A stretch of 24,000 nt of DNA from assembly GCA_019243445.1 (NCBI GenBank), contig JAFAUH010000302.1, positions 1-24,000 of the forward strand, read 5' to 3'. Below, in pieces: positions 4,140 through 19,858 of the stretch. Under the pieces are notes generated by a model, which saw nothing but the letters and a program-made list of their open reading frames with translations, was not told the origin of the DNA and searched no databases. Made by a program: the position numbers and the translations under genes. The stretch comes from Streptomycetaceae bacterium. GTDB taxonomy: Bacteria > Actinomycetota > Actinomycetes > Streptomycetales > Streptomycetaceae. How positions within the stretch are numbered: the first letter of the stretch is position 1; each line of letters begins with the position of its first letter.

Positions 4140-4841
4140 TCAGCGGTGGATGCCCCGATGAAGTGCGACGACGCCGCCGGTCAGGTTGCGCCAAGCGACA
4201 CTCGACCAGCCCGCCTGCTGCATACGGGTGGCGAGGCCGGGCTGATCGGGCCAGGCACGAATGGACTCTGCGAGGTAGACATACGCATCGGGGTTGCTGC
4301 TCACGGCTGTGGCCACCGGCGGCAGCGCACGCATCAGGTATTCGGTGTAGAGGGTGCGGAACAGCTGCCACGTCGGGTGGCTGAATTCGCAGATCACGAT
4401 CCGGCCACCGAGCCGCGTCACCCGCAGCATCTCGGCGAGCGCGGCGCCGGTGTCGCGGACATTGCGCAGACCGAAGGAGATGGTGACGGCGTCAAAGGCG
4501 CCATCCGTGAACGGCAGCTTCATCGCATCGCCCGCGGTCAGCGACAGCCCCGGGTGCCGCTTCTTGCCCTCGCGCAGCATGCCGAGCGAGAAGTCACACG
4601 GCACGACGTGGGCGCCCGCTGCCGCGAAGGGGAGGGAAGATGTGCCCGTACCGGCAGCAAGATCGAGCACCCGCTCGCCGGGGCGTGCGCCGACGGCGGC
4701 GGCGACCGCCTTGCGCCACAGCCGCGCCTGGCCCAGTGACAACACGTCATTGGTCAGGTCGTAGCGGGCCGCGACGCCATCGAACATCGCGGCGACTTCA
4801 GACGGCTGCTTCTCCATGGAGGCTCGGGTCACGGTTCTCAT
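4140..4841 (-). CDS. menG: Demethylmenaquinone methyltransferase (UbiE/MenG family)
   Basis: [25 protein letters not shown] followed by the SAM motif [12 protein letters not shown] and ISFGLRNV, classic UbiE/MenG signatures. The start could instead be GTG at 4832 (VTRAS...). Confidence 0.9.
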
Positions 4842-4926: not shown

Positions 4927-6126
4927 TCACTCCGCATCGATGAGCTTGAGCTCGGGGTGGGCGGTTCCGCCCTCAATCGCGGTCGAGGACAGGTGCGACA
5001 CGACGTGCTTGTCGACCGGGTCGTTGGCGGGGTCGTCGTGCACGACCAAATGTTCGTAGGTGGTCGTGCGCTGCGCCGGCACTCGCTCCGCCGTACGGAT
5101 CAAATGGATCAGCTCCATCAGGTTGGAGCGGTGCTTGGCGCCGGCCGAGGAGACCACGTTCTCCTCCAGCATCACCGACCCGAGGTCATCGGCCCCGTAG
5201 TGCAGCGACAGCTGTCCGGCCTCTTTGCCGACGGTGAGCCAGGAGCCTTGGATATGCGCCACGTTGTCGAGGAAGATCCGAGCAATCGCGATCATTCGCA
5301 AGTATTCGAAGATCGTCGCTTGCGTTTGGCCGCGCAGATGATTGTTTTCCGGCTGATAGGTGTACGGGATGAACGCACGAAAGCCGCCTGTGCGGTCCTG
5401 CACATCTCGGATCATCCGAAGATGTTCGATTCTCTCGGCATTGGTCTCACCCGTGCCCATCAGCATCGTCGACGTCGATTCCACCCCGAGCCGGTGCGCC
5501 ATCTCCATGATCTCCAGCCATCGCTCGCCGGACTCCTTCAGCGGCGCGATCGCCTTGCGCGGCCGCTCCGGCAGCAGCTCGGCGCCCGCGCCTGCGAACG
5601 AGTCGAGACCTGCGGCATGAATGCGCCGGATCGCCTCCTCGACGCTCACTCCCGAAACCTTCGCCATGTGCTCTACCTCGGACGCCCCGAGCGAGTGGAT
5701 CACCAGCTGCGGGAATTGCTTCTTGATCGCAGCGAAATGCTTCTCGTAGTACTCGACCCCGAAGTCCGGGTGGTGACCGCCCTGGAACATGATCTGCGTA
5801 CCGCCGAGCTGTACCGTCTCGGCGCAACGGCGCAGGATGTCGTCGAGATCGCGGGTCCAGCCCTTGTCGCTTTTCGGCGGTGCGTAGAAGGCACAGAACT
5901 TACACGCCGTCACGCACACATTGGTGTAGTTGATGTTGCGCTCAATGATGTACGTGGCGATGTGCTCGATGCCCGCGTAACGGCGGCGGCGGATCGCATC
6001 GGCCGCCTGTCCGAGCGCGTGCAGCGGCGCGTTCCGGTACAGCTCGAGCGCTTCCTCCGGCGTGACCCGCTCCCCTGCAACGGCATGGTCGAGTACGGAC
6101 TGCAGGCCGACTTTGGCGGGCACCAC
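4927..6126 (-). CDS. mqnC: Cyclic dehypoxanthinyl futalosine synthase (radical SAM, futalosine pathway)
   Basis: Radical-SAM cluster motif NYTNVCVTACKFCAFY, plus GGTQIMFQGGHHPD and TMLMGTGET blocks typical of MqnC. The ORF is open to 6318. GTG at 6126 (or 6123) is preceded by AAGGA and gives 399 aa. The upstream extension is Arg-rich and lacks any recognisable domain signature, so it is not called. Confidence 0.85.
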   Translation of the reverse strand: MVPAKVGLQSVLDHAVAGERVTPEEALELYRNAPLHALGQAADAIRRRRYAGIEHIATYIIERNINYTNVCVTACKFCAFYAPPKSDKGWTRDLDDILRRCAETVQLGGTQIMFQGGHHPDFGVEYYEKHFAAIKKQFPQLVIHSLGASEVEHMAKVSGVSVEEAIRRIHAAGLDSFAGAGAELLPERPRKAIAPLKESGERWLEIMEMAHRLGVESTSTMLMGTGETNAERIEHLRMIRDVQDRTGGFRAFIPYTYQPENNHLRGQTQATIFEYLRMIAIARIFLDNVAHIQGSWLTVGKEAGQLSLHYGADDLGSVMLEENVVSSAGAKHRSNLMELIHLIRTAERVPAQRTTTYEHLVVHDDPANDPVDKHVVSHLSSTAIEGGTAHPELKLIDAE

Positions 6127-6295
6127 GGCGTCCTTTCGGGAGGGGCAGGCGGCGGACGTGCCCAGACTACGCCAGGCAATTCGTGAGCGACGCATGCGAG
6201 CAAGCGGAGTGGCCGGCCGCAGCGCCGCCGTTCGAGGTGCGCGCCTCCGGCACGACAGGCCGTCCGCAAAGCGCGAGAGCAGACGGAGAAGCGAA

Positions 6296-6340
6296 CAAAA
6301 AACCCACGAGCGACGCACGTCGGACGCTGTCGCTTCGTGG
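6296..6340 (-). terminator. Intrinsic terminator of the toxin/immunity/NTPase operon
   Basis: On the minus strand, immediately after the TGA at 6343-6341: CCACGAAGCGAC...GUCGCUCGUGG stem (one bulged A) followed by GUUUUUUG. Confidence 0.8.
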
Positions 6341-8581
6341 TCACCGCAGGATGCGCTGATCGTACTGCCAGCCGGTGATGCCCTCGTTCCCCGCGGCGAT
6401 CAGCATCCCGTCCCGGGTGAGGGCCAGCGCTGAGACGTCGTGGTGGGGATAGATGGTGATGCGATTGCCCAACCCCGGCCGCAGCAGATGGACGACGCGA
6501 TCGGCCCATGCCACAGCCATCACGGGGCCCGTAGCCGTCTCGGTGAGGGCCAGTGCCTTGGGCACCGACTCGCGGCGCGTCAGCGGCCTCGGCAACGGGG
6601 CACGGTCGCAATCCCACAACCGAATGGTTCCGTCGGTGGCTGCGGCGACGACCATCGTCACGCCGTTCCCGACACGCAGACAGCACACACCGGTGAGCGG
6701 CGCATCCGCAAGCCGCTCGACCCTGCTGAACGGGGCCTGGCCGAGAGCAGATCGGTCGAGAGCAGACTGGCTGAAAGCAAACAGGTGGGCGTTGCCCGTC
6801 ATATCCCCCACCACCAGGAGTCCGGCCTGCGGATCGCTGCCCACGCAGGTGGCGTTCACCCGGTCCGCCGGATCGACCGCATTGAACGGCGCCAGGATGT
6901 CCGCAGTCTGCGGCTGCTCTGCGCCACCGACCAGGTGGAGTACGCCGTCGTCACCGAGTACGACAATTCCGCCGTCCGCGAGTGGGGAAATGCCAGTGGC
7001 ACCGTTGGCCGGGGTGTTCACAGCTCGTCCGGAGATGGTCCCGTCGGCAGCGTTGATGATGTGGAGCTGACCTATCGGATCAGCTGCGATTACCTGAGTG
7101 GGGTGTGGTGTTGACGACGTCCCCGGGCTCAATGCGCCGATCGCACCCGGCCAATGCGCATCCGTCCCGCCGTTGTTCGGTATGAGTGAGGTGTGACGTA
7201 GGAAGGACCAGCGTGCGACAGCTGAGGCCTTCTCTGCCATAGGTGCGAGGAGTTCAGCCAGTCGCGGTGCGCTGGACAATGCGACCGCATGCAGCACGGA
7301 GGCACGTTTCTCCGCGTCGGGCAGTCCGCGATCGAGGATGGGCGCGGCCGGGTACCAGGTTGACCGCAGCGTCGGCGGAGTCTTCACCTTCGGATCGTCG
7401 AGGGCTTGGGTGATGGCAGCGGGGGATCCGTGGATGAGAAAGCCCGGATCGCTCATCAGGTGACTCAGGGAACGAGCATCCGGTGCGTGTCCGATGATGT
7501 GATCCAGTACATAGCGTGGGGCGTGCTCCCAGTCGAGCTGGCCTCTCGTGCTTTTGGGCACCAGGTCGAGAAGTGATGCGAAGAGCACCTGTGGAGTCGA
7601 GTGTTCATCAATCGCCTCGCTCTCCCGCCGTGCAATTTGGATCAGCTGAGGGAGCGGCAGCTTGAATTCCTGTACCTGTGGGGCAAGTTGCGCAGCGGCG
7701 GCGTCCACGGCGGCCCTGGCCGCGGCCTCGGAATCGGACGGGTGCAGTCCAGCGTGCAGCAGCCGCCATGTGGCGATGCCCATCTCCCCACGTGCCCATG
7801 CCAATGTCCGCAACGCGCTTCGCGCAGCTGGTTCCAGGCGACTCCACCACGCCGCGCAGATACTTGTGCGCGTATCTGGGCGCGTATCTGGGCGCGCGAT
7901 GCCTTGATCACTGGTGAGCCCTGCTGCGAGCCGCCCCAGAACGGGATGCGGGAAGACCTCTGCCGCGGGGACGGTGGGGCTGCCTCCCGTCAAGCGCGTA
8001 TACCAGGCGGCGTACTCCTCCTCGTCGGTCATCGCTGGATCGTCGAGGTCGATCGTCCGTACGGGGAAGTCGAAGCCGCTGCTGGTGAGGTCGCGTACCT
8101 CCGCAATCACGCGGACCCACGGCAGCGCCAGAAGTGGTTCCAGCACTTCGGTCACCAACAGGGAGCCAGGCCATCGGCCTCGAGTGCTCACCTGGTGCAG
8201 ATCTGGTATCGCGATCAGCAACGGGCGTTTGTCAGCCGTGACATGGATGATCAGATCGGACACTGATGCTGGGCCGTAGCCCAGTTGAAATGACAGCTCC
8301 CATACCAGCGGCGCCAGCGAAGCACCGGCCGCAGGAACCAGTGCGTTGACCTGGTCCGCCGCGTGTCCGGTCGCATGTCCGGAGGTGTGTCCGGCCGCGT
8401 GTCCGGTCGCGCCGCATGCGAACCAGGCGATGAGATGGCTCTTCCCCATCCCTGCCGAACCACCGACCAGGCATACCCGTTCCGCATCGGTGTCCGCTGC
8501 CCACTCAAGCAGCGCCCAGCCCGCCGGGGCACGGCCTGCCTCCAGCGGTGGCCGGTCGTCGGCGGGCAACGCGTTGTTCAC
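6341..8581 (-). CDS. STAND-type P-loop NTPase with C-terminal WD40-like beta-propeller
   Basis: Walker A is VCLVGGSAGMGKSHL and a Walker-B-like strand is RPLLIAIPDLH. A long helical middle region follows. The C-terminal third has repeated strand blades (QLHIINAADGTISG, GIVVLGDDGVLHLVG, LLVVGDMTGNAHLF, MVVAAATDGTIRLWD, VMAVAWADRVVHLL, MLIAAGNEGITGWQY). GTG start with GGAGGAG upstream. Confidence 0.75.
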   Translation of the reverse strand: MNNALPADDRPPLEAGRAPAGWALLEWAADTDAERVCLVGGSAGMGKSHLIAWFACGATGHAAGHTSGHATGHAADQVNALVPAAGASLAPLVWELSFQLGYGPASVSDLIIHVTADKRPLLIAIPDLHQVSTRGRWPGSLLVTEVLEPLLALPWVRVIAEVRDLTSSGFDFPVRTIDLDDPAMTDEEEYAAWYTRLTGGSPTVPAAEVFPHPVLGRLAAGLTSDQGIARPDTRPDTRTSICAAWWSRLEPAARSALRTLAWARGEMGIATWRLLHAGLHPSDSEAAARAAVDAAAAQLAPQVQEFKLPLPQLIQIARRESEAIDEHSTPQVLFASLLDLVPKSTRGQLDWEHAPRYVLDHIIGHAPDARSLSHLMSDPGFLIHGSPAAITQALDDPKVKTPPTLRSTWYPAAPILDRGLPDAEKRASVLHAVALSSAPRLAELLAPMAEKASAVARWSFLRHTSLIPNNGGTDAHWPGAIGALSPGTSSTPHPTQVIAADPIGQLHIINAADGTISGRAVNTPANGATGISPLADGGIVVLGDDGVLHLVGGAEQPQTADILAPFNAVDPADRVNATCVGSDPQAGLLVVGDMTGNAHLFAFSQSALDRSALGQAPFSRVERLADAPLTGVCCLRVGNGVTMVVAAATDGTIRLWDCDRAPLPRPLTRRESVPKALALTETATGPVMAVAWADRVVHLLRPGLGNRITIYPHHDVSALALTRDGMLIAAGNEGITGWQYDQRILR

Positions 8582-8623
8582 GTCTTCTCCTCCGCGGTAG
8601 GGCGTGACGTCAGTAGCCGGACG

Positions 8624-9184
8624 TCAGTAGCCGTACAGAATGCGTTCCACAATCTGGTACCAGTAGGACTCGGGGTCGGCGAAGGCAGTCGAATCCGCAG
8701 CACGGAGTTCGACCACGAGGTTGTCCGTCGCCTTCTTACGGGTCTCCAGATTCTTCGCCTCGATATATTCTCGATCACGGAAGAACGCGGTAATGAACAG
8801 AGTGAACAGATCGACGCTGCTGTTGAGGAAACCTGGCGCTTCCTCTCCGTCAACCATCACCCTGACCTCACCGGTGCTACCGTCCAGGATCACGGCGTCG
8901 TCGCCGTAACAAAATCCCATGGCGACCCAACTGTCCGCGGTCCGAGGCAGATCATCGATCTCGTAGATATCAGGACGCTCCGAGCGAAGATCCGGTAGTC
9001 CGGAGGCCACCGTGTCCACGGTCTGATAGATGAAGTCGGATACATCCGGAACCCCGACTTCGGCAAGAAAGCGGGCTGTGGCCGTGTGAGTGACGGCGGG
9101 ATTCAGCAGTTCCGCAGGAACGGTGGCGACATGGGCAGGGCCGAATGCCGCTTCCAGCTCACTGCGCGAGATCGCGAAGCTCAT
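8624..9184 (-). CDS. SUKH-4-like immunity protein (stand-alone)
   Basis: 186 aa. It is clearly paralogous to the N-terminal roughly 180 aa of the next gene. Compare FLAEVGVPDV / LLVECGIPRQV, SWVAMGFCYGDDAVILDGSTGEVR / SWLCLGRDQGAQLCLDPSGKVR, NSSVDLFTLFITAF / NGSLDAFLESLIAL and PESYWYQIVERI / PDSWWSRVVEDI. Size, pattern and adjacency to toxin deaminases fit the SUKH-4 immunity family as I recall it. GAGGAG RBS 5 nt upstream of the ATG. Confidence 0.6.
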   Translation of the reverse strand: MSFAISRSELEAAFGPAHVATVPAELLNPAVTHTATARFLAEVGVPDVSDFIYQTVDTVASGLPDLRSERPDIYEIDDLPRTADSWVAMGFCYGDDAVILDGSTGEVRVMVDGEEAPGFLNSSVDLFTLFITAFFRDREYIEAKNLETRKKATDNLVVELRAADSTAFADPESYWYQIVERILYGY

Positions 9185-9256
9185 CGGACTCCTCGGTGGT
9201 GCGGTGCGCGGGGCTGTCGTGTGCGATCCTGTGCGGTCGTTGCGAGGGTGACGGGT

Positions 9257-10105
9257 TCATTTCACCGCGGCCTGCCGCAGGAGGGCGAGGAAGCTCGCTT
9301 CTCGGGACTGTGCAGTCTGCCCGTAACCAAAGGAATGGGTGAATTCTGCATGCGGGAATTCTCTTGCCATCCATACAGTGCAGTAGTGTCCGGGCATGAA
9401 ACAAGGTTCCAGCTCGGTGTGCACCTTCTTCACCTGAGCGGGAGTGACGCCGGCTTCCCGTAGACCGTTCCAGATCCGCTCTTCCGGATGCAGGCACATG
9501 CCGCCCGGTTCGCTCACGATCTGCTTCTTCCCTTCAGCGTCGGTGAACTCGAAGGCGGCAAAGGAGGCATGCGAGCTGGTGTGCCGGATGTCCTCGACCA
9601 CTCGCGACCACCAGGAGTCGGGCGACTGCACCGCCCCTTGTTCGATGACCGCGAGCCGCCGCAGCAGGGTACGGATGTGCGTTGCTCTTTCCGGTACGTT
9701 CCGGGTAGCACCGATCAGGGCGAGCGCTTCGTCCAACGCGATGAGCGATTCAAGGAAGGCGTCCAGGCTCCCGTTGACGAGCGCCCCGGGATCACCGGAC
9801 GCATCGAATTCGGCTCGCACCTTCCCTGACGGGTCCAGGCACAGTTGCGCTCCCTGGTCCCTCCCGAGGCAGAGCCAAGATGCCTTTCCGCCGGTGTCAT
9901 CCGTGTCCGCCGTCCCGTGATAGGCACCCAACCGGAGGGAGTCGCTCTCCGACGACAGAAAATAAGGACCGACCTGCCGAGGTATTCCACATTCGACAAG
10001 AAGAGGAATTCGTCCGGCATCCGGACCGATATTTCCCACCATGAATCGCCGAATACCGGACGAACCGAAGCGCGCCACGATTCTTGCTCGAAGGTCGTCA
10101 GACAT
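9257..10105 (-). CDS. SUKH-4-like domain fused to a C-terminal toxin-type (CDA-fold) deaminase domain
   Basis: The N-terminal 180 aa are homologous to the 8624-9184 product. The C-terminal roughly 90 aa carry zinc-deaminase motifs HPE (CLHPEERIW) and PCx6C (ELEPCFMPGHYCTVWM). Its tail REFPHAEFTHSFGYG parallels the upstream deaminase tail KYFPGTDVSHSFIYG. Confidence 0.65.
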   Translation of the reverse strand: MSDDLRARIVARFGSSGIRRFMVGNIGPDAGRIPLLVECGIPRQVGPYFLSSESDSLRLGAYHGTADTDDTGGKASWLCLGRDQGAQLCLDPSGKVRAEFDASGDPGALVNGSLDAFLESLIALDEALALIGATRNVPERATHIRTLLRRLAVIEQGAVQSPDSWWSRVVEDIRHTSSHASFAAFEFTDAEGKKQIVSEPGGMCLHPEERIWNGLREAGVTPAQVKKVHTELEPCFMPGHYCTVWMAREFPHAEFTHSFGYGQTAQSREASFLALLRQAAVK

Positions 10106-10143
10106 GCTTCATATCCTACATCCTCGCGGCACACCTATGGAGA

Positions 10144-10920
10144 TCACTTGAACAGGTCTTTCAGGTAGCTTGCATGAGCCTCGTTCCCCACCGTCTCATC
10201 CTCCTTCTCCGGGCCGTAGATGAAGGAGTGAGAAACATCTGTCCCCGGGAAATACTTCGCGAGCCACGCGGCACACTTCGGACTGCGCCGCTGACACGGG
10301 GCTCTTTCACTGTAGGCCGCAACGACATCACCGGTCAGATTGCCATTCTCCTTATTGGCCAGGAATGGCACTCCGGCGTACTGCTCGGAGTGCGAACCGT
10401 ACGACTTGCTCCGGCCTACCAGAATAAATTCGCCGTCTTTTCCTTTGTAGTGGAACGCGGCGTAATTATTCGCGCCTTCATCCCCCATGGCGCCCCGGGC
10501 CTGCTGGGTGGCCCTCGACAGCTCCGTCGTCCCTGGAGCAACTTCCTCGGAGTTCACCATCGGCCATTCCTTGCCGGGGGATTTGGGACCGAGGAGATAC
10601 TCTCCGGGTTTCTTTCCGAGGGTTTTGTTCTCGTCATCCAGGATATTACGGATCCCGGACGTGTCATGGAGTGCGACTTCGGTCAGTTCGTTTTCCCCGA
10701 CCTTCATGACCTTGCCCTCGTGGTCGACCATGTACACGGGGACTCTGTCCGCTATGTCTTCCTCGACCTTTTCGAAATGAGTGGCGGCATCGCGGGCCAT
10801 GGTGCCGATGCGGTCGTGGGCGGCGGCAAGCGCCCGGGGTATCTTCTCGCTGATGTGCCCGAGGATTTCGACGGTGGGTTTGACTATTTTCTCAACTATC
10901 TCCGCCATACCGTCTTTCAA
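10144..10920 (-). CDS. Toxin-type nucleic acid/nucleotide deaminase (CDA fold; SCP1.201-like or YwqJ-like clade unresolved), possibly the C-terminal half of a split polymorphic toxin
   Basis: HSE (GSHSEQYAG) and PCx6C (SERAPCQRRSPKCAAWL) are spaced 32 residues apart. The preceding strands AAFHYKGKDGEFILVGRS fit a deaminase core. The only start candidates are TTG at 10920, which overlaps the upstream stop by 4 nt, or ATG at 10908. The N-terminal 140 aa look like a linker rather than a domain. Confidence 0.65.
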   Translation of the reverse strand: MKDGMAEIVEKIVKPTVEILGHISEKIPRALAAAHDRIGTMARDAATHFEKVEEDIADRVPVYMVDHEGKVMKVGENELTEVALHDTSGIRNILDDENKTLGKKPGEYLLGPKSPGKEWPMVNSEEVAPGTTELSRATQQARGAMGDEGANNYAAFHYKGKDGEFILVGRSKSYGSHSEQYAGVPFLANKENGNLTGDVVAAYSERAPCQRRSPKCAAWLAKYFPGTDVSHSFIYGPEKEDETVGNEAHASYLKDLFK

Positions 10921-11642
10921 CCCCCCGTGGTGAAGGTCAGCGCTCCGACTTTATTGCTGAAATCTCGGCCCCCGTTGATGTTGGCATCGGCTTCACGCTT
11001 GATCATTTCTCCGTGGGTACGTATGGCCGCGGTATCGAGCTTGAGAGCGGGTACCTGACCTCCGATGCTCAGATGGGCGACCTCGGCGAAGAGCAGCCTC
11101 TGCACTGACTGGTCTATCCGCTCCATGATCGGTCCGATGGTGGAGTTCACCAGGGCGCCGACCACCTCGGATTCGAAGCGCTGCAGGATGGCGTTGATGA
11201 TACGATTCTGCGCCTCGATGAAAATGGGTTCCGCGGCCTCCGCCAGGCCCGCAGTGGCCACCGCGGCCACCTGATCGGCAGCGAACTCCGCTGCCGCTAT
11301 GCCGAGTTGGACGATAACCTCGCCCTTCATCCCCTCTACCCCGATGGCCGCCACATCAAGACCGTCAGCCAGCAGCCGGCACACCTCGATCAGATCTTTC
11401 ATATGTCCGGAAGACTGATCGGCCCACACCTGAGCCAGCGCGGTGTACGACTGTGCCGTGTAGGCCCGTTGCAACTCTCCGTTGACGATGCCGTGGGTGC
11501 GTCCGTGCGACTGCTCGCACTCTTCGGCATAGGAACGCAGGTGCTTGGCTGCCTCGCGAAGCTGGTCCTCGTCGATCTCTGGCCAGTTGAAGCCCAGTAT
11601 CCCCATGATCTCAACAAGCCAGTGCGGCAAGTTGATAGCCAC
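10917..11642 (-). CDS. WXG100/LXG-like helical N-terminal trafficking module of a T7SS-type polymorphic toxin (no toxin domain in this ORF)
   Basis: The N-terminus MAINLPHWLVEIMGILGFNWPEIDEDQLREAAKHLRSYAEE...ALAQVWADQSSG resembles the WP-x-x-DED-x-L helical hairpin found at the N-termini of actinobacterial secreted toxins (from memory). The remainder is Ala-rich helical. GTG start with GGGGGAGG 6 nt upstream. It ends ...FTTGG-stop on a G6 run. Confidence 0.55.
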   Translation of the reverse strand: MAINLPHWLVEIMGILGFNWPEIDEDQLREAAKHLRSYAEECEQSHGRTHGIVNGELQRAYTAQSYTALAQVWADQSSGHMKDLIEVCRLLADGLDVAAIGVEGMKGEVIVQLGIAAAEFAADQVAAVATAGLAEAAEPIFIEAQNRIINAILQRFESEVVGALVNSTIGPIMERIDQSVQRLLFAEVAHLSIGGQVPALKLDTAAIRTHGEMIKREADANINGGRDFSNKVGALTFTTGG

Positions 11643-12108
11643 GGCCGCCTCCCCCGGTTCAATGAACGCTCTACCCCATCACCACACATCCTATGATCTG
11701 CCCGTCAATCCTGCTGTCAACACGGTGAATTGATGACACGTGATGACGTGCTCGTGACGCCAACGTGATCCGTGCGTTCGCAGCATCGGGAAACCGCAGC
11801 AGAGACCAGCCACTGATCCGTCAGGCGATCACCTGCCCGACGTGGCAGGAGGGGCGGCCGCCGGTTCGGGTGTCAGATGCTGGTATGACCGAGGTGTTCA
11901 ACATGAGCGTGATGTCCCTGGGAAGACTCCCCGCGCGCGAGGCCGATCTGTGACGACACCACCATCCGCCGTTGATTCCGATCGTGTACCGAACAAGCCC
12001 AAGGCGCCCTGAAGTGACCAGGTCGCACGCCGTGCACGGTACGTTGGGCGCACGGCTGGGCATACGGGGGTCGTTGAGCATCGAAGTACGTAGGTAACGG
12101 GAGGGTCA

Positions 12109-13722
12109 GTGGACCAGACGCCGGAATGGGGCCGGAGTGATAGAGGTGGCGCCTGGAATCCGGGTGGGGACAGAAGCTTCGGCGCAGGCGCCGGGGTAGG
12201 TGGTCCTGGCAGGACCGGTGGTGATGCATGGGCCGGACAGGCCGACTACGGCGCGGGGTCGTCGGGTGGCGGCAGTTACGCCGGGCTCGCTGCTGAGGCG
12301 GACGCGCTCTCCGGCCGTCTGCCCGAGGGCTTTCAACTGCTGCGACGGGCCGGAAGGGGCCGGCACAGCAGCGTGCTGCTGTGCCGCGAGGACGCGACCG
12401 GGCAAGAGGTCGCGCTGAAAATACTCAACTTGACGGTGGAGGACGAGGGCCTGCGGCTGGCCACTCACTCCGAGCTGCTCTCCGCGGGGGCCGCGGCGAA
12501 ACACCCGTGCTCGGTGCTGGTCGAGGACGCCGGCTTTACGCCCGACAATCGACCATATCTCGTCGAGCAGTTCTGCCAAGGCGGAAATGCTCAGTCAAAG
12601 CTGAATAATTCGGGCACCTTCTCGGTGGACGAGGTCATCATCATCGGGATACGGCTGGCGCTGTCGCTGAGTTCGGCGCACCGCCGCGGCGTCCTGCACT
12701 TGGACGTACGACCCGCGAACGTGCTCTTCGACGGGGCCGGGGACGCACTGCTCGCCGATCACGGCATCGCCCGTATCATCCAGCGGTCCGCACCGCAGCT
12801 CGGGGCCGTTTTCGACCCGATGTACTCCGCGCGCGAGATGTTCGGCTGGGAGAAGCCGGGGCCGTCCGCCGATATCTACGGCCTCGGGGCGACGCTCTAT
12901 GCGCTGCTCAACGGCCTTCCCGCGTATGCCGAGGCGGGCAGCACCAGTTGGTCGGCACTCTACAACGAGGTGCTGCGTGGCGAATTCCCACCGCCGAACC
13001 GGCACGATGTGCCACCGCAGCTGTTCGACCTCATCAGCCGCATGATGTCGGTGAACCCGGAGGGCCGCCCTCCGCTCACCGAAGTGCACCGGGTGCTGCG
13101 GATGATGATGCCTGCCGGGTATGGCGTCCGGGTACCGGCGCTCGACCCGGAGCCGGAGCCCGAGCCGATGCTGCCAGGCTGGGATCCGGCCGAAGACATC
13201 ACGCCGGAGGAGCAGGCGGAAGCCGAACGGATAGGCGCTGAGGCCGAGGCGGAGGCGCAGCGGCGTCGCCGCATGTGGATCGCTTCGGGCGCGGTCCTGG
13301 TCCTTTTCGTTGCGGGGGCCACGGCGATCACCGTGTACCACGAGAAGAACAAGGCGAAGGAGAAGGCGTCCGCCAGCCCCGCGCTGCCCAAGGGGCCGGT
13401 GCCCGCGAGCGAACAGGCTGAGTTCATGCCGCAGGACGTGATGGTGACAAAAGTCAACGGGACCGTGCAAGTGGCGTGGAAGGCCCCGAAGAACATGAAA
13501 TCGGTGGTTTCCTACGCAGTGCAGGTGGCTCTCCCTGCCGCCAATGGTCAAAAGAGGGGCGGTCAGTTGCAGACGACGACACTGGCCAATCCCGAGGTGA
13601 TCTTCAGCGCGCCCGAGGACGTACAGTCCGACGACTGCTACGTCGCCGCGTCGGTGGTGAAGGCTGCCAATGGCGAGCTGCAGTATGCGGCTGCGCGACC
13701 TGTGTGCAATACGGCGGGATGA
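12109..13722 (+). CDS. Membrane-anchored Ser/Thr protein kinase-like protein (Hanks fold, single TM, extracytoplasmic beta-rich domain)
   Basis: Gly-rich disordered N-terminus. Kinase core has EVALKIL (Lys), HRRGVLHLDVRPANVLF (catalytic loop, HLD instead of HRD), LLADHGIA (DHG instead of DFG) and SAREMF...SADIYGLGATLYALLNG. TM segment MWIASGAVLVLFVAGATAITVY. C-terminal roughly 130 aa with FN3-like strand pattern (VTKVNGTVQVAWKAP...SYAVQV). GTG start after GGGAGGG. Confidence 0.8.
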   Translation: MDQTPEWGRSDRGGAWNPGGDRSFGAGAGVGGPGRTGGDAWAGQADYGAGSSGGGSYAGLAAEADALSGRLPEGFQLLRRAGRGRHSSVLLCREDATGQEVALKILNLTVEDEGLRLATHSELLSAGAAAKHPCSVLVEDAGFTPDNRPYLVEQFCQGGNAQSKLNNSGTFSVDEVIIIGIRLALSLSSAHRRGVLHLDVRPANVLFDGAGDALLADHGIARIIQRSAPQLGAVFDPMYSAREMFGWEKPGPSADIYGLGATLYALLNGLPAYAEAGSTSWSALYNEVLRGEFPPPNRHDVPPQLFDLISRMMSVNPEGRPPLTEVHRVLRMMMPAGYGVRVPALDPEPEPEPMLPGWDPAEDITPEEQAEAERIGAEAEAEAQRRRRMWIASGAVLVLFVAGATAITVYHEKNKAKEKASASPALPKGPVPASEQAEFMPQDVMVTKVNGTVQVAWKAPKNMKSVVSYAVQVALPAANGQKRGGQLQTTTLANPEVIFSAPEDVQSDDCYVAASVVKAANGELQYAAARPVCNTAG

Positions 13723-13798: not shown

Positions 13799-14095
13799 TC
13801 AGTGGCCAATGCCGTGCGCCAGGCTCTCGTCCGCCTGACGGAAGGCGTCGGCGGCCTGGTGCAGGAACTTCGCCATGCCGGTGAGGCCGTCGATGGTCTG
13901 CGTCGCGCCCTTGTTGAACTCGGTGTACGACTGCTCGAACGCCTTCGAGGAGCGGTCGGTCACGTAACCGTCGTTCACCAACTGGTTGACGAAGCTCTGG
14001 AGCTGGTGCAGCTTGTCGGTGATCTCCTGCTGCCCGCTGGTCAGCTTGTTCGCCGCGTCCTGCATCTGGTCATAAGTGACGTTTACGTTGGCCAT
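13799..14095 (-). CDS. WXG100-family (EsxA-like) small helical secretion substrate, Trp-less variant
   Basis: 98 aa with a predicted helix-turn-helix layout. Start MANVNVTYDQMQDAANKLTSGQQEI and mid-turn ...NDGYVTDRSSKAFEQSYTEF align by eye to EsxA ...ANWEGQAFSRFEEQF. It is divergently adjacent to an EssC/EccC-like ATPase. Confidence 0.7.
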   Translation of the reverse strand: MANVNVTYDQMQDAANKLTSGQQEITDKLHQLQSFVNQLVNDGYVTDRSSKAFEQSYTEFNKGATQTIDGLTGMAKFLHQAADAFRQADESLAHGIGH

Positions 14096-14160
14096 ATCGG
14101 CAACCCCTCATTTCACGCCTCAGGGCCTGTCCCCCGTGGCTCCTGGCTACTTCGTTTCTA

Positions 14161-14181
14161 GCAGGTTGCATGACAACCTGC
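14161..14181. promoter_or_regulatory. Perfect 8-5-8 inverted repeat in the divergent WXG100/essC-like promoter region (candidate operator)
   Basis: gcaggttg-catga-caacctgc, located 66 bp from the WXG100 start and 291 bp upstream of the ATPase start. Confidence 0.25.
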
Positions 14182-14471
14182 CCGGCTTTGCCAGTTGTTC
14201 AGCTTACGGGCAGGGACGCGGGAGTGCACCCCCCGGTTCCCGGCAGACGTCCGCGAACCAACTACCGCCCCCACCATACAGTCAGCACATATTCACGTTT
14301 TCTGCACGTTCCCCCATATCTCCCCCCACCTTCGCCTGGGCGGCTGTCGTACCCGTCAGGCATCATGGTTCCCATCACAAGCCGAGCGGCTTCGCGCAGA
14401 GAACAGGAACATGCGCAGGCGCCGTGCAGGCACCGCGCATTGCACCGACAACATCGCCCAGGGGGACGGCC

Positions 14472-17400
14472 GTGGAACTGCAGCTCAGCGTCATTGACCC
14501 AGTCCGTGCGGACCGTTCGGACATGCTGGTCGACGCCGATCCCGCAGCACCGGTCGGCGCGCTCGCTGTCGAGATCGCCCGGCAGCTCGGGATGCCCGAC
14601 GACGGGCAGGGCCCGCCCAGGCTGCATATCAACGGCTTCATAGTCGACCCCGAGGTCAGCCTCGACGCCTCGCCCGTGCGTGACGGCGCGCTGGTCTCGA
14701 TAGCCGCGCCCGCCCCGCTTCAGGCACCCGACGCGCAAGGCACCGTCGAGGTACGGGTCGTGGGCGGTCCGGATGCCGGCGGTGTGTACCGGCTGGGGCC
14801 CGGCATGGCCGTCGTCGGCAGCGGGACGGAGGCGTGGATCCGGCTCGCCGACGCGCAGTTGCCGCAGTCCGCGGTCGAGGTGGACGTCGCGATTGACGGC
14901 AATGTGACCGTGCGCCCTTCGGCAGGCGCCTCCGTCACCCTCGACGGCGAGCCGCTCACCTCCGCCAAGCCGTGGCGGCGGCGTAGCGTCATCAGCGTCG
15001 GCCAGTCGCTGATCGAGCTGCAGCATCCATCCTTCCCCGACGCCGCGTTGAAGCCTTCCGAAGACGGCACAGGGCTGGATTACAACCGGCCGCCGCGTAT
15101 CACCCCGCCGCCGCGACCGACGAAGTTCAACCTGCCGGCGAAACCCAAGCAGGGCGAGGCACGTCCGCTGCCCTGGCTCATGGCGGCGCTGCCGCTGGTC
15201 GGCTCCCTCGTGATGTTCATGGCGATGCGGCCGCATAATCCGATGTATCTGTCCATGGCGCTGCTCAGTCCCCTCACCATGGTGGGCAACTACCTCAACG
15301 ACCGTAAGCGCGGCAAGAAGTCGTTCCGCCACACCCTCGCCGACTACGAGAAGCAAAAGGACTCCATTGATCGGCAGGCGCGCAAGGCGGTCGCCGCCGA
15401 GACGGGCGCGGCGCGCGAGCTGTGCCCCGACCCGGCGCAGGTACTGATCACCGCGACCGGCCCTGGTATGCGACTGTGGGAGCGTCGGCGCGCCGACGCC
15501 GACTACGGGCTGCTGCGGGTCGGCACGGGCACCCTGCCGTCGGAGGTCGAAGTCTCCGACCCCGCACAGGAGGAGCACCGGCGTATCTCGCACCGCAAAC
15601 TGCTGGACGCGCCGGTGACAGTGCCGATGACCGTCCACAGCGTGCTGGGCATTGCGGGACGCGGTGAGGTGCCGCGCATGATCGGCCGCTGGCTGATAGC
15701 CCAGGCCGCCGTGTTGCACTCTCCGGCGGATTTGTCCGTCTGCGTGCTCACCGACCCGAGCGGACGGCACAGTTGGGAATGGGTGCGCTGGCTGCCGCAT
15801 GCCCGGGCCCGGGAGGGCCAGTCGGCCTTGGCTTTGATCGGTACGGACGCCGACAGTGTGGCGCGTCGCATCAGTGAGCTGCTCGCCCAGTTGACTGCCC
15901 GTCAGGATGCGGCGCGTGAGGCGGGTATGCAGGCCAACCAGGTCTGGAGCGGCCCCACTACTCTCGTTGTCCTCGACGGATCGCGACGGCTGCGCGCGCT
16001 GCCGGGCCTGACGCAGATCCTGCGCGACGGCCCGAAGGTCGGCATCCACCTGATCTGCCTCGACGCCGACCGCCGGCTGCTGCCTGAGGAGTGCAAGGGG
16101 GTGGTCGAGGAGGATTACTACGGGCTGCTGTCGGTCTCGATCGCCGGTCAGGAGCCGGTGACCCAGGTGCGCCCCGACTGTGTCTCGCCCGAGTGGTGTG
16201 AGCAGGTCGCCCGCTCTATCGCGCCGATACGTGACATCAGTGGTGACGACGGCGCGGCGCTGCCCGACGCCTGCCGTCTGCTGGACGTCATCGATCTGGA
16301 GCCGCCGACGACAGCCGGGATCACGGCACGCTGGTCGCTGAGCGGGCGCAGCACAAGCGCCGTGGTCGGTGCCTCCTTCGACGGGCCGTTCGCCATCGAC
16401 TTGGTGCGGGACGGGCCGCACGGCCTGGTCGCCGGCACCACTGGTTCCGGTAAGTCGGAGCTGCTGCAGACCATTGTCGCCTCGCTCGCCGTAGCCAACC
16501 GGCCGGACGCGATGACATTCGTCCTTGTCGACTACAAGGGCGGTTCGGCGTTCAAGGACTGTGTGAAACTGCCGCACACCGTCGGCATGGTCACCGACCT
16601 CGACACCCACTTGGTGGAGCGAGCGCTGGAGTCGCTCGGCGCCGAACTGCGCCGCCGTGAGCACATCCTCGCCGCGGCCGGTACGAAGGACCTCGAGGAT
16701 TACATCATTGCGATGCGCACCAACTCGTCGCTCGCACCGATGCCGCGCTTGCTCATCGTGATCGACGAGTTCGCGTCCATGGCGCGGGAACTGCCGGACT
16801 TCGTCACAGGTCTGGTCAATATCGCGCAGCGAGGCCGTTCGCTGGGCATTCATCTGATCCTGGCCACGCAGCGGCCCTCCGGTGTCGTCTCGCCCGAGAT
16901 CCGCGCCAACACCAATCTGCGGATCGCATTGCGCGTGACGGACGCCGCCGAGTCGTCCGACGTCATCGACGCGCCCGACGCCGGGCACATCGCCAAGTCC
17001 ACGCCGGGGCGGGCGTATGTGCGCCTTGGCGCCTCCTCGCTCCTGCCGTTCCAGTCCGGCCGGGTCGGCGGGCGGCGGCCGGGCCAGGTCGCGTCGAAGG
17101 CTCCTGCGCCGTTCACGGTCCCGGTCGGGTGGGAGGCACTGGGCAAGCCGGCGCCCGAGCGCCCGCAGGGGCCGAAGTCCAACGACGACGATCTGCTCAC
17201 CGACCTCGCGGTCCTGGTCGATGCGATCATCGGTGCCAATGAGCAGTTGGGGCTACCGCCGCAGCACAGCCCGTGGCTGCCCGCGCTCCCGGACTCCACC
17301 ACGCTGGACGATCTGGAGCCGCCGCGCTATCTGTCGCGGGACGGTTTGCTGCCGGCCCCGTTCGCCGTCGAGGACCTGCCATCGCAGCAGGCGCGCCGCA

Positions 17401-18875
17401 CCACCTCGATCGAGCTGCCGACCTTCGGTCACCTGATCATCGCGGGTTCGCCGCGTACCGGCCGCTCACAGGCGCTGCGTACGATCGCGGGTTCACTCGC
17501 CCGCGCCAACTCCCCTGCGGATCTGCATCTTTACGGTCTCGACTGCGGCAATGGCGCGCTGCTGGCCCTTACCCAGTTGCCGCACTGCGGGGCCGTGGTC
17601 CGCGCCAATGAGCCGGATCGCGCCGAGCGGCTCATCAACAACCTGTCGGCCGAGGTACAGCGGCGCATGGCGCGGCTCGGCGAGCGCGGCTTCACCGACA
17701 TCAACGAGCAGCGTCTCGGAGTTCCGGAAGGCGAGCGGCTGCCGCACATCATGCTGCTGCTCGACCGCTGGGAGGGCTTCCTGCCCTCGCTCGGCGAGAT
17801 GAACTCCGGCGCGCTCACCGATGCCGTCTTCCAGCTGATGCGTGAGGGTGCCTCGGTCGGCATCCACGTGATCGTCGCCGGTGACCGCACGGTGCTCGTC
17901 GGCCGGATCTCAACGCTGACCGAGAACAAGCTGGCATTCCAACTGAGCGACTCATCCGACTTCAGCGTGATCGGTCTCAACCCGCGCAAGGTACCGGAGA
18001 AGATGGCGCCCGGCCGTGCCTTCCGCCAGGGCGCCGTCGAGACACAGGTCGCACTGCTCACCGAGGATCCCAGCGGCCAGGCACAGTCGGCGGCGATCGG
18101 CACGATCGCCCAGTGGGCAAAGGGCCGCTGGGACAACGTGCCGCGTTCACGTCTTCCGTTCCGAGTGGACGTGCTGCCGGGCCGGATCAGCTTCGAGGAG
18201 GCGTGGGAGCTGCGCGACGTCAGCGACCAGGCGGTCAACAGCCCCCTGTGGGCGCTGACCGCGGTCGGCGGCGACCAGCTCACCGCCATCGGCCCGGATC
18301 TGCGTCAGGGCAGTCCGGCATTTGTCATCGCGGGTCCGCCGCGCTCCGGGCGCTCCACCGCGCTGCTGACGATGACGCGCTCGCTGATGTCGGCCGGCAC
18401 CCAGGTGATCCTGGCTGCGCCACGCCGCCAATCGCCGCTGCGCCGCCTTAAGCACGCGCCGGGCGTGATCGGATACTTCACGGAGGAGGAGATCTCCGGG
18501 GCCGAGATGGAGGAGGCGCTGAACCGGGTGCAGGGATCGGCAGCGATCATCGTCGACGACGCGGAGCTGCTGCGCCAGTGCGATGCGAGCGAGCTGCTGA
18601 CCCAGGTGGTGCGCCGCTCGACGGGTAAGGACATCGCCTTGGTGATCGCTGGCGACGCGGACGGCGTGTGCGGCGGTTTCTCCGGCTGGCAGGTGGAGAT
18701 GAAGAAGGCCCGGCGCGGTCTGCTGCTCTCGCCGCAGAATCTGTCGGATGCCGATCTGATCGGTGTGCGGCTGCAGCGTAGTGCGATCGGCCAGGCGATT
18801 CAGCCCGGCCGCGGGCTGCTGCACCTTGGCGACGGCGAGGCTCGTACCGTCCAGGTGCCACTCACAGCGCTGTAG
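14472..18875 (+). CDS. EssC/EccC-like type VII secretion ATPase: ubiquitin-like (YukD-like) domain, FHA, 2 TM, three FtsK/SpoIIIE P-loop domains
   Basis: N-terminal roughly 85 aa are VELQLSVIDPVR...ALAVEIARQLGM...INGFIVDPEVSLDASPVRDGALVSI (beta-grasp pattern). FHA-like segment is VEVRVVGGPDAGGVYRLGPGMAVVGSGTEAWIRLAD...VTLDGEPL...ISVGQSLIEL. Two TM segments are PLPWLMAALPLVGSLVMFMAM and MYLSMALLSPLTMVGNYL. Walker A motifs are GTTGSGKSELL, GSPRTGRSQAL and GPPRSGRSTAL, with Walker B motifs LLIVIDEFA, IMLLLDRWE and AIIVDDAE. The ORF is open from 14076, but that part overlaps the WXG100 gene. GTG at 14472 follows GGGGGA. An alternative GTG lies 16 codons upstream. Confidence 0.85.
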   Translation: MELQLSVIDPVRADRSDMLVDADPAAPVGALAVEIARQLGMPDDGQGPPRLHINGFIVDPEVSLDASPVRDGALVSIAAPAPLQAPDAQGTVEVRVVGGPDAGGVYRLGPGMAVVGSGTEAWIRLADAQLPQSAVEVDVAIDGNVTVRPSAGASVTLDGEPLTSAKPWRRRSVISVGQSLIELQHPSFPDAALKPSEDGTGLDYNRPPRITPPPRPTKFNLPAKPKQGEARPLPWLMAALPLVGSLVMFMAMRPHNPMYLSMALLSPLTMVGNYLNDRKRGKKSFRHTLADYEKQKDSIDRQARKAVAAETGAARELCPDPAQVLITATGPGMRLWERRRADADYGLLRVGTGTLPSEVEVSDPAQEEHRRISHRKLLDAPVTVPMTVHSVLGIAGRGEVPRMIGRWLIAQAAVLHSPADLSVCVLTDPSGRHSWEWVRWLPHARAREGQSALALIGTDADSVARRISELLAQLTARQDAAREAGMQANQVWSGPTTLVVLDGSRRLRALPGLTQILRDGPKVGIHLICLDADRRLLPEECKGVVEEDYYGLLSVSIAGQEPVTQVRPDCVSPEWCEQVARSIAPIRDISGDDGAALPDACRLLDVIDLEPPTTAGITARWSLSGRSTSAVVGASFDGPFAIDLVRDGPHGLVAGTTGSGKSELLQTIVASLAVANRPDAMTFVLVDYKGGSAFKDCVKLPHTVGMVTDLDTHLVERALESLGAELRRREHILAAAGTKDLEDYIIAMRTNSSLAPMPRLLIVIDEFASMARELPDFVTGLVNIAQRGRSLGIHLILATQRPSGVVSPEIRANTNLRIALRVTDAAESSDVIDAPDAGHIAKSTPGRAYVRLGASSLLPFQSGRVGGRRPGQVASKAPAPFTVPVGWEALGKPAPERPQGPKSNDDDLLTDLAVLVDAIIGANEQLGLPPQHSPWLPALPDSTTLDDLEPPRYLSRDGLLPAPFAVEDLPSQQARRTTSIELPTFGHLIIAGSPRTGRSQALRTIAGSLARANSPADLHLYGLDCGNGALLALTQLPHCGAVVRANEPDRAERLINNLSAEVQRRMARLGERGFTDINEQRLGVPEGERLPHIMLLLDRWEGFLPSLGEMNSGALTDAVFQLMREGASVGIHVIVAGDRTVLVGRISTLTENKLAFQLSDSSDFSVIGLNPRKVPEKMAPGRAFRQGAVETQVALLTEDPSGQAQSAAIGTIAQWAKGRWDNVPRSRLPFRVDVLPGRISFEEAWELRDVSDQAVNSPLWALTAVGGDQLTAIGPDLRQGSPAFVIAGPPRSGRSTALLTMTRSLMSAGTQVILAAPRRQSPLRRLKHAPGVIGYFTEEEISGAEMEEALNRVQGSAAIIVDDAELLRQCDASELLTQVVRRSTGKDIALVIAGDADGVCGGFSGWQVEMKKARRGLLLSPQNLSDADLIGVRLQRSAIGQAIQPGRGLLHLGDGEARTVQVPLTAL

Positions 18876-18961: not shown

Positions 18962-19858
<897 letters not shown>

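Follow-up and report, generated by a model that had tools for sequence, protein, structure and literature searches.

A conserved SUKH-4::deaminase fusion protein linked to an Apaf-1-like ATPase in Streptomycetaceae

The 24,000-nucleotide (nt) window analysed here, positions 1 to 24,000 of contig JAFAUH010000302.1 from a Streptomycetaceae bacterium (assembly GCA_019243445.1), carries five same-strand genes, designated A-B-C-D-E, separated by gaps of 8, 38, 72 and 42 nt. Gene C (9257..10105, minus strand; ATG start, 282 amino acids (aa)), called as an open reading frame (ORF) and matched to Pfam, encodes a SUKH-4 domain followed by an XOO_2897-type deaminase domain in a single chain. We found that this fusion is widely conserved and is coupled to a neighbouring ATPase of Apaf-1-like, STAND-like architecture, the product of gene E. 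The coupling is the most informative feature of the locus, and it was absent from the preliminary description of this DNA, which had been made from the letters and translated ORFs. We tentatively favour, with somewhat less than even confidence, a reading in which C is a non-secreted deaminase neutralised in cis and working with the STAND ATPase E, while the free SUKH-4 protein encoded by gene D serves the secreted toxin encoded by genes A and B.

The SUKH-4 domain of C comprises residues 1-178 (9572..10105, minus strand), of which residues 35-172 (9590-10003) match PF14435 with 49.7 bits (E 6e-13; gathering cut-off 25.5 bits). The XOO_2897/APOBEC-like deaminase domain covers residues 181-272 (9290..9565, minus strand) and matches PF14440 with 78.3 bits (E 5e-22; gathering cut-off 27 bits). 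C thereby belongs to both families. The preliminary description had taken residues 1 to about 180 for a paralogue of the free SUKH-4 protein and the C-terminal part for a paralogue of the deaminase encoded upstream, and pairwise BLASTP alignments of C against the products of 8624-9184 and of the upstream deaminase gene (the 10144-10473 stretch) bore out both assignments. The N-terminal half is 31% identical to the product of D (8624-9184) over 102 aa (E 3e-8), and the C-terminal half is 28% identical over 87 aa (E 1e-8) to residues 152-236 of the product of B.

All of the motifs quoted at that stage can be read in the translations. C and D pair SWLCLG...LDPSGKVR with SWVAMG...LDGSTGEVR and have in common the motif P[ED]S[WY]W..[IV]VE in the C-terminal part of the SUKH-4 domain (PDSWWSRVVEDI in C, PESYWYQIVERI in D). 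In the comparison of C with B, the deaminase HxE motif reads HPE and HSE, respectively, and further motif pairs are PCFMPGHYCTVW with PCQRRSPKCAAW and FPHAEFTHSFGYG with FPGTDVSHSFIYG. The catalytic HPE (residues 206-208; 9482-9490, minus strand) and PCx6C motifs of C are both intact, C235 being encoded at 9401-9403 and C242 at 9380-9382 (minus strand). The N-terminus MSxxDLxxRLxxRFGxxGLRR is kept across our alignment A1, which supports the start of C at 10105.

Pfam shows SUKH-4 and deaminase domains alone in C, with no WXG100/LXG or other trafficking or secretion domain. The protein has no hydrophobic segment either, the maximum of a 19-residue Kyte-Doolittle window being 1.44. C lacks the secretion domain that defines secreted polymorphic toxins and, judged by its predicted domain content, is not to be filed among them.

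A protein search with C recovered 48 protein clusters, down to 38% identity and most of them 250-300 aa long, from Streptomyces, Kitasatospora and Actinomadura. Both Pfam domains are shared by 47 of the 48 clusters; the exception, P0017, is a protein of 182 aa with the deaminase domain alone. A scan of one genome per species placed relatives of C in 254 genomes, and the gene also occurs on four Streptomyces plasmids. No homologue was present among 50,697 phage records. Residues H206, P207, E208, C235 and C242 of the deaminase domain are invariant in a 30-sequence alignment, as are P42, P47, Y48, D83, V96, L124, D125, W165, W166 and R174 of the SUKH-4 domain, and the H.E and C-x(4-8)-C signatures are kept in all of the copies of C extracted from the related loci (81/81). 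The fusion is a conserved gene, neither a local accident nor an artefact.

An AlphaFold2 model of C, built with 30 homologues, has a pLDDT of 90.2 and a pTM of 0.89. Its SUKH-4 part contains a four-stranded sheet (residues 78-111) and long helices (114-178). The deaminase part consists of strands 182-188 and 194-200, helix 207-217, strand 225-232, helix 242-249, strand 254-259 and helix 265-281, with nothing beyond; HPE opens the first of these helices and C242 the second. In this model the deaminase core ends after helix 4, as Iyer 2011 describes for this clade of the helix-4 division, and the best matches of this part among solved structures are APOBEC3H, APOBEC3B and AID (Foldseek probability ~1.0). 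The C-terminal part, for which the preliminary description had expected a deaminase-like fold with its zinc-binding residues in place, is predicted to be such a core. A junction of only ~3 residues connects the final helix of the SUKH-4 part (165-178) to the opening strand of the deaminase part (182-188) in the model. A profile of the fusion family gave no match when searched against the PDB by sequence, and the CapRel structures 7ztb and 9erv appear among the structure matches of the C model at chance level only.

Gene E (6341..8581, minus strand) encodes a P-loop ATPase with a WD40 propeller, as judged from its Walker A motif, its AlphaFold2 model (pLDDT 82.7, pTM 0.76) and structure matches. 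In the model, the NTPase lies at residues ~18-200, helical domains at ~200-450 and the WD40 beta-propeller at 454-745. The Walker A motif GxAGxGKS is invariant at G41, G44, G46, K47 and S48. The best PDB matches of the model are full-length Apaf-1 (3shf and 3sfz; E 1.6e-16, ~890 columns). Against curated profiles, E stays below threshold, with 17.9 bits for AAA_16 (cut-off 32.6) and 12.9 bits for NACHT (cut-off 26.7), and neither an N-terminal effector domain nor an identifiable output domain was detected by Pfam or in the model. By its sequence, E appears to be a divergent STAND-like lineage, STAND-like in its working and outside the curated families. A word-indexed homologue search with E returned close relatives alone (12 proteins), as did the corresponding search with B (10 proteins).

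We surveyed the module in 80 related loci by running a profile for each of its parts against their six-frame ORFs. Of these loci, 73 have a homologue of E no more than 6 kb away from C, and 55 have it directly downstream. In the RefSeq plasmid annotation and in L087, either 3 nt separate the stop codon of C from the start codon of E or the two genes share 4 nt.

More distant relatives combine the same parts in other ways. An exhaustive profile search identified ~25 representative proteins with the reverse order, deaminase::SUKH-4, and all of those checked by Pfam and looked up (10/10) are from Streptomyces. In S. rimosus, the reverse fusion overlaps by 4 nt a 730-aa homologue of the ATPase and helical part of E (hhalign 98.2%), and the 923-aa protein P0120 unites all three parts, with a deaminase-like domain and SUKH-4 fused to an E-like ATPase (probability 98.8%). 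The deaminase motifs of P0120 and of the S. rimosus protein P0234 (L089:7001-8329) are degenerate, with PPAEY for HPE and GGYT at the second cysteine, and to judge from these motifs the two proteins look like a non-catalytic bait or sensor version of the unit. At locus L091, a 910-aa E-like P-loop ATPase (L091:4205-6937) has a C-terminal SUKH-4 domain in the place of the WD40 propeller. Its gene is flanked on one side by that of a deaminase::SUKH-4 protein and on the other by that of a polytoxin of at least 1396 aa, which contains a glutamine deamidase and ends in an XOO_2897 deaminase. Because of these Rosetta-stone cases (S. rimosus, P0120 and L091), a functional link between the ATPase lineage of E and the SUKH-4/deaminase unit, as predicted from domain content, is hard to doubt.

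Several further observations concern these relatives. A uracil-DNA glycosylase gene lies two genes on from the reverse fusion of L091. Locus L090 encodes a WHH nuclease::SUKH-1 fusion of 331 aa (L090:6003-6998) directly followed by a collagen-repeat-deaminase-SUKH-4 protein of 938 aa (L090:7001-9817), with a YwqJ-deaminase/SUKH-3 pair nearby. Single proteins that hold both a toxin and a SUKH immunity domain thus seem to recur as a design in Streptomyces. In the 816-aa protein P0098 (L092:2942-5392), the deaminase and SUKH-4 are joined to an Mrr_cat / 'NACHT-associated inactive restriction endonuclease 1' domain, which is another hint at a tie to NACHT-type ATPases.

The locus also holds a secreted toxin and a free SUKH-4 protein. 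Gene A (10917..11642, minus strand) encodes a 241-aa WXG100_2-domain protein (PF25547, E 6e-12), the type VII targeting part of the toxin. Gene B (10144..10908, minus strand) encodes a 254-aa protein that is helical in its N-terminal part and ends in an XOO_2897 deaminase (PF14440, E 3e-11). Gene D (8624..9184, minus strand) encodes the free SUKH-4 protein of 186 aa (PF14435, E 4e-29). The start of B is the ATG at 10908, not the TTG at 10920 that had been listed mechanically, and NCBI protein P0061 (254 aa) is 100% identical to B. In six of six type-1 loci, A ends in ...TFTTGG*, preceded by a G-run, and B has its own start codon, with differing frame relations; at the A/B junction of the window (10906-10940) and also in L001, L003, L004, L005 and L007, the start codon of B lies 5-13 nt past the stop codon of A. 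A frameshift at the G6 run of the junction (ACGGGGGGTTGA), which would have split a single toxin, is ruled out by the six type-1 loci together with the 254-aa NCBI call. A and B are separate genes in the clade of the window, and most other clades have a single toxin ORF of 505-523 aa.

In most related loci, a free SUKH-4 gene directly follows the toxin, as RefSeq and gene-call tables agree, and the commonest module orders contain one free SUKH-4, placed after the secreted toxin. Across 58 loci, the mean pairwise identity of the fused deaminases is 0.61 versus 0.43 for the toxin deaminases, and that of the fused SUKH-4 domains is 0.48 versus 0.31 for the free ones. Over the same loci, the identity-matrix correlation is 0.91 between the toxin deaminase and D, 0.83 between the toxin deaminase and the SUKH-4 domain of C, and 0.67 between the deaminase of C and D, values that are inflated by shared phylogeny and are supportive only. 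The position of the free SUKH-4, the correlations, the solo copy described below, the short junction and the single-body model together favour pairing D with B and the two domains of C with each other. On these comparisons, D is probably the cognate immunity protein of the secreted toxin B, and the SUKH-4 domain of C is favoured as the keeper of C's own deaminase.

The components that recur in the 80 loci are the WXG100-deaminase toxin, the free SUKH-4, C and the ATPase E, and they occur in several orders. C-E-toxin-SUKH4 was found in 29 loci, plus variants, toxin-SUKH4(-SUKH4)-C-E in 12 or more, and toxin-C-SUKH4-E, the window's own order, in about 7; several loci hold a Kitasatospora form of the module with a divergent E. 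Clustering of all locus ORFs revealed no additional universally conserved partner. One copy of C stands alone: at L027:5974-6849, a copy with an intact active site is located between argS and a chaplin-like secreted-protein gene. No ATPase, toxin or free SUKH-4 was found within 6 kb of it, and its genome holds a second copy, L037, with the full module.

In the reading that we favour, C would be a cytoplasmic, self-contained toxin-plus-antidote protein. Its deaminase would be an APOBEC-like zinc cytosine deaminase acting probably on single-stranded nucleic acid; a nucleic-acid cytosine is the likely substrate since members of the XOO_2897 family deaminated cytidines of single-stranded DNA when examined with a reporter (bioRxiv 10.1101/2023.05.21.541555). 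The SUKH-4 domain would pack onto the deaminase and, acting in cis, either tether it or switch it off. The weapon that the locus secretes would be the WXG100-targeted toxin A+B with D as its antidote, and not C. E would pair with C as a switch that is driven by nucleotides and has its sensor domain at the C-terminus, and would either read the state of the SUKH-4/deaminase unit or license its release upon a sensed cue. The data show the architecture with its intact catalytic motifs, the conservation across species, the linkage and fusions to the ATPase and the lack of export signals; we infer that neutralisation takes place in cis, which way E and C signal, and what serves as cue and as substrate. 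Since the active site of C is always intact, C may be both sensor and effector, by analogy with fused toxin-antitoxins such as CapRel.

The preliminary description had offered two readings of the fusion, a cis-autoinhibited intracellular deaminase or the immunity gene of one toxin joined to the orphan tip of a second. The former is better supported, with occlusion of the active site still hypothetical, because C has no export domain, its domains meet at a 3-residue junction in a model with a pTM of 0.89, one free SUKH-4 follows the toxin, a solo copy exists (L027) and reverse fusions arose independently.

Several points weigh against neutralisation in cis together with E. The pTM backs a SUKH-4 domain covering the active site only indirectly, as a feature of the model. 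Common descent alone raises the matrix correlations, and the pair of C domains is trivially linked. The genome of the solo copy also contains the full module at L037, leaving room for protection in trans. In the variants from S. rimosus and P0120, degeneration of the deaminase motifs means that the unit cannot be an enzymatic effector, which points to sensing or baiting in these relatives at least. The constant company that the C-E pair keeps with the secreted toxin/immunity pair is left unexplained by this reading. None of the proteins A-E has a meaningful match in PADLOC or in NCBIfam, and no experiment on any member of the C family was found in the literature.

The main rival, which we consider unlikely, treats the SUKH-4/deaminase unit mainly as a sensor: SUKH-4 would be occupied by the deaminase domain of its own chain, an incoming XOO_2897-type toxin or another foreign protein would compete for it, the Apaf-1-like ATPase would detect the change and trigger a response, and the deaminase activity of C would be secondary or serve as the output. 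The relatives speak for such a bait or guard, with the STAND sensor end taken by SUKH-4 in L091 or by a degenerate deaminase plus SUKH-4 in P0120, and with dead motifs in the S. rimosus partner protein as well; the module is also never without a toxin whose deaminase belongs to the same family. However, catalytic residues are present in 81/81 copies of C, where a pure bait would not need them, and E has no identifiable output domain. Binding of foreign toxins by the SUKH-4 domain of C is purely hypothetical, and what a cell would gain from sensing a toxin that does not replicate is not obvious.

A wider picture, unlikely in our estimate, is an NLR/Apaf-1-like surveillance of interbacterial toxins. 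SUKH-4 pre-loaded with a deaminase from the family that competitors use as a weapon would be the bait or integrated decoy, the STAND ATPase would register its disturbance by an incoming XOO_2897-type toxin or other invader protein, and then either the APOBEC-like deaminase would be unleashed in the cell or a counter-attack with the linked toxin would be licensed. The variants with a dead deaminase plus SUKH-4, or SUKH-4 alone, at the sensor position of the ATPase would be the fully integrated form of such a system.

The other explanations are progressively less likely than a bait. The immunity/orphan-tip reading of the preliminary description, in which toxin B is neutralised by the SUKH-4 half of C and the deaminase of C is an orphan tip 2 whose own immunity is the next gene, D, is in our judgement improbable. 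It draws on the toxin-C-D order of the window and of 5-7 related loci, where each SUKH-4 directly follows a deaminase, on the paralogy of both halves of C to their neighbours, and on the correlation that the SUKH-4 half of C still keeps with the toxin deaminase (r 0.83). Yet this order belongs to a small clade, and C-E-T-S and T-S-C-E (T, toxin; S, free SUKH-4) dominate, in which C neither follows the toxin nor precedes a SUKH-4 gene. The marks of an orphan cassette, namely a position after a full toxin, its own immunity gene next and variability, are found only in the window's minority order. Moreover, C lacks both a trafficking domain and the N-terminal stub of a toxin on which recombination could act, it is conserved and evolves more slowly than the toxin/immunity pair, where toxin tips diversify, its rigid 3-residue junction and pTM of 0.89 point to one folded unit, and a solo C exists.

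It is quite improbable that C is an accessory toxin whose SUKH-4 domain grips the deaminase of A+B and which rides out with it through the type VII system. The constant linkage to a WXG100-type toxin and the type VII secretion-type ATPase genes nearby (14076-18875 in the window, and in L089) would suit this, but C has no WXG100/LXG or helical targeting region, its tight coupling is to a cytoplasmic-type STAND ATPase rather than to the toxin, and the solo copies and the reverse-order and ATPase-fused variants are ill-suited to a cargo role.

A very improbable alternative is that C is a domesticated, regulated AID-like editor of the cell's own DNA or RNA, with SUKH-4 as a regulatory or adaptor domain, for example diversifying the adjacent fast-evolving toxin/immunity genes or acting under stress. 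The APOBEC/AID-like fold, the slow evolution with an intact active site, the neighbourhood of rapidly diverging toxin/immunity genes and the glycosylase gene two genes from the reverse fusion in L091 are in keeping with it, and Zhang 2011 raised deaminase-triggered recombination in such loci (PMC3113570). Divergence of toxin and immunity genes is general, however, and needs no local mutator, and the glycosylase adjacency is a single case. As for a frameshift, lost stop or misassembly joining two genes, the chance is negligible: the source is a metagenome-assembled Streptomycetaceae genome, but an uninterrupted ORF with both domains, 250-300 aa long, is equally present in isolates of Streptomyces, Kitasatospora, Actinomadura and others, including complete chromosomes and plasmids.

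The SUKH-4 and XOO_2897 families and their association were defined by Zhang 2011 (PMC3113570) and Iyer 2011 (PMC3239186). The latter gives SUKH4 as the immunity of XOO_2897, labels SUKH4 in its architecture figure, and groups XOO_2897 with AID/APOBEC in the helix-4 division, the core being truncated after helix 4 (PMC3239186). The preliminary description had stated that surveys mention SUKH-deaminase fusions; that statement stands weakly, through this immunity assignment and figure label, but the text of the surveys contains no discussion of protein C. Databases already list the two-domain architecture, whereas text on the conservation or the ATPase partner of C, or an experiment on C, was not found in the literature. 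No account of the module was found in the literature on SUKH with STAND/WD40 or on Streptomyces type VII deaminase toxins, and surveys of STAND conflict systems make no mention of SUKH or XOO_2897 partners (Kaur 2020, PMC7159879).

Compared with the classical XOO_2897/SUKH-4 toxin/immunity pair, of which the locus itself has a canonical case in A+B with D, C draws on the same two families but is one immunity-first polypeptide without a trafficking domain, conserved rather than polymorphic, and partnered by a STAND ATPase. Toxin-immunity fusions are noted in the surveys, namely SUFU joined to the OTT_1508 deaminase (Iyer 2011, Table 1) and Tox-GHH joined to SUKH (Zhang 2012, PMC3482391), and the WHH::SUKH-1 protein of L090 adds another case. 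The surveyed fusions place immunity and toxin in one protein as C does and were noted without experimental follow-up; they belong to other families, and no STAND partner or four-gene module has been described for them. With the Apaf-1/STAND NTPase conflict systems (Kaur 2020, PMC7159879) and Avs-type sensors, E shares the NTPase-helical-WD40 layout and an effector or sensor partner that is encoded next door or fused, but it differs in having no N-terminal effector or adaptor domain, sub-threshold NACHT and AAA_16 scores and no PADLOC model. AID/APOBEC proteins are the best structural matches of the deaminase domain, which differs from them in being bacterial, ~100 aa long and 15-20% identical, without strand 5.

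CapRelSJ46 and EzeT are fused toxin-antitoxins with cis autoinhibition. Like them, C has poison and antidote in one chain, and its antidote is proposed to restrain the enzyme until a trigger arrives. Unlike them, it is built from unrelated folds (deaminase and SUKH-4 rather than RelA-SpoT-like or zeta kinase), its domains come from an interbacterial toxin system, its ATPase partner looks obligate, and its cis inhibition is putative.

If the favoured reading is true, an interbacterial toxin/immunity pair has been domesticated into an intracellular, self-neutralised enzyme under an Apaf-1-like switch. This would join polymorphic toxins to NLR-like bacterial immunity and cell-death systems, fields usually treated apart, and would provide a bacterial parallel to the regulated AID/APOBEC deaminases. 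The four-gene module, present in culturable Streptomyces and on plasmids, would be a testable system for immunity domains turned sensors, with natural variants at hand in the form of active and dead deaminases and split and fused ATPases. A deaminase of ~100 aa with a built-in protein off-switch may also interest base-editing work. Even if the reading fails, annotation is corrected, as "SUKH-4 family immunity protein" and "deaminase domain-containing protein" each name half of C.

A consensus scan located a promoter-like site, TTGACA-16-GATCAT, upstream of gene A (11693..11720, minus strand), which is the likely start of a predicted A-B-C-D-E operon; no minus-strand terminator-like site was found within the A-E operon. 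None of the window's other genes recurs next to the module across the 80 loci, and argS is located upstream in common to 15 type-3 loci. One plasmid copy of the module is flanked by a resolvase and an integrase, and the plasmids carry full-length toxin homologues in exactly the four records that contain C. The GC content of the toxin/immunity genes (8600-11700) is 0.58-0.61, and their third-position GC (GC3) is 0.69-0.75 versus 0.83 in the flanking menaquinone genes. Since no other flanks are conserved, a resolvase and an integrase adjoin the plasmid copy and GC3 is lower, the module, judged from these features, appears to behave as a mobile cassette.

The low GC content is consistent with an acquired island set among futalosine-pathway genes. 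The latter include a radical SAM MqnC/E-like gene (4927-6318, minus strand), UbiE (4140-4841) and an MqnA-like gene (18962-19849). The first ~70 residues of the radical-SAM ORF are low-complexity, Arg-rich and non-coding in look, and its true start is probably downstream. On the opposite strand, just upstream of the toxin operon, lie a Ser/Thr protein kinase gene (12109-13722, plus strand) and a gene for a 1599-aa protein with FHA-like and FtsK/SpoIIIE ATPase domains (14076-18875, plus strand), an EssC/EccC-like type VII secretion motor. This EssC/EccC-like neighbour is not kept in most related loci, L012 alone showing it. In Streptomyces avicenniae (L085, L006), the module is split, with the WXG100 gene, C and E on one contig and a B-type deaminase with SUKH-4 on another.

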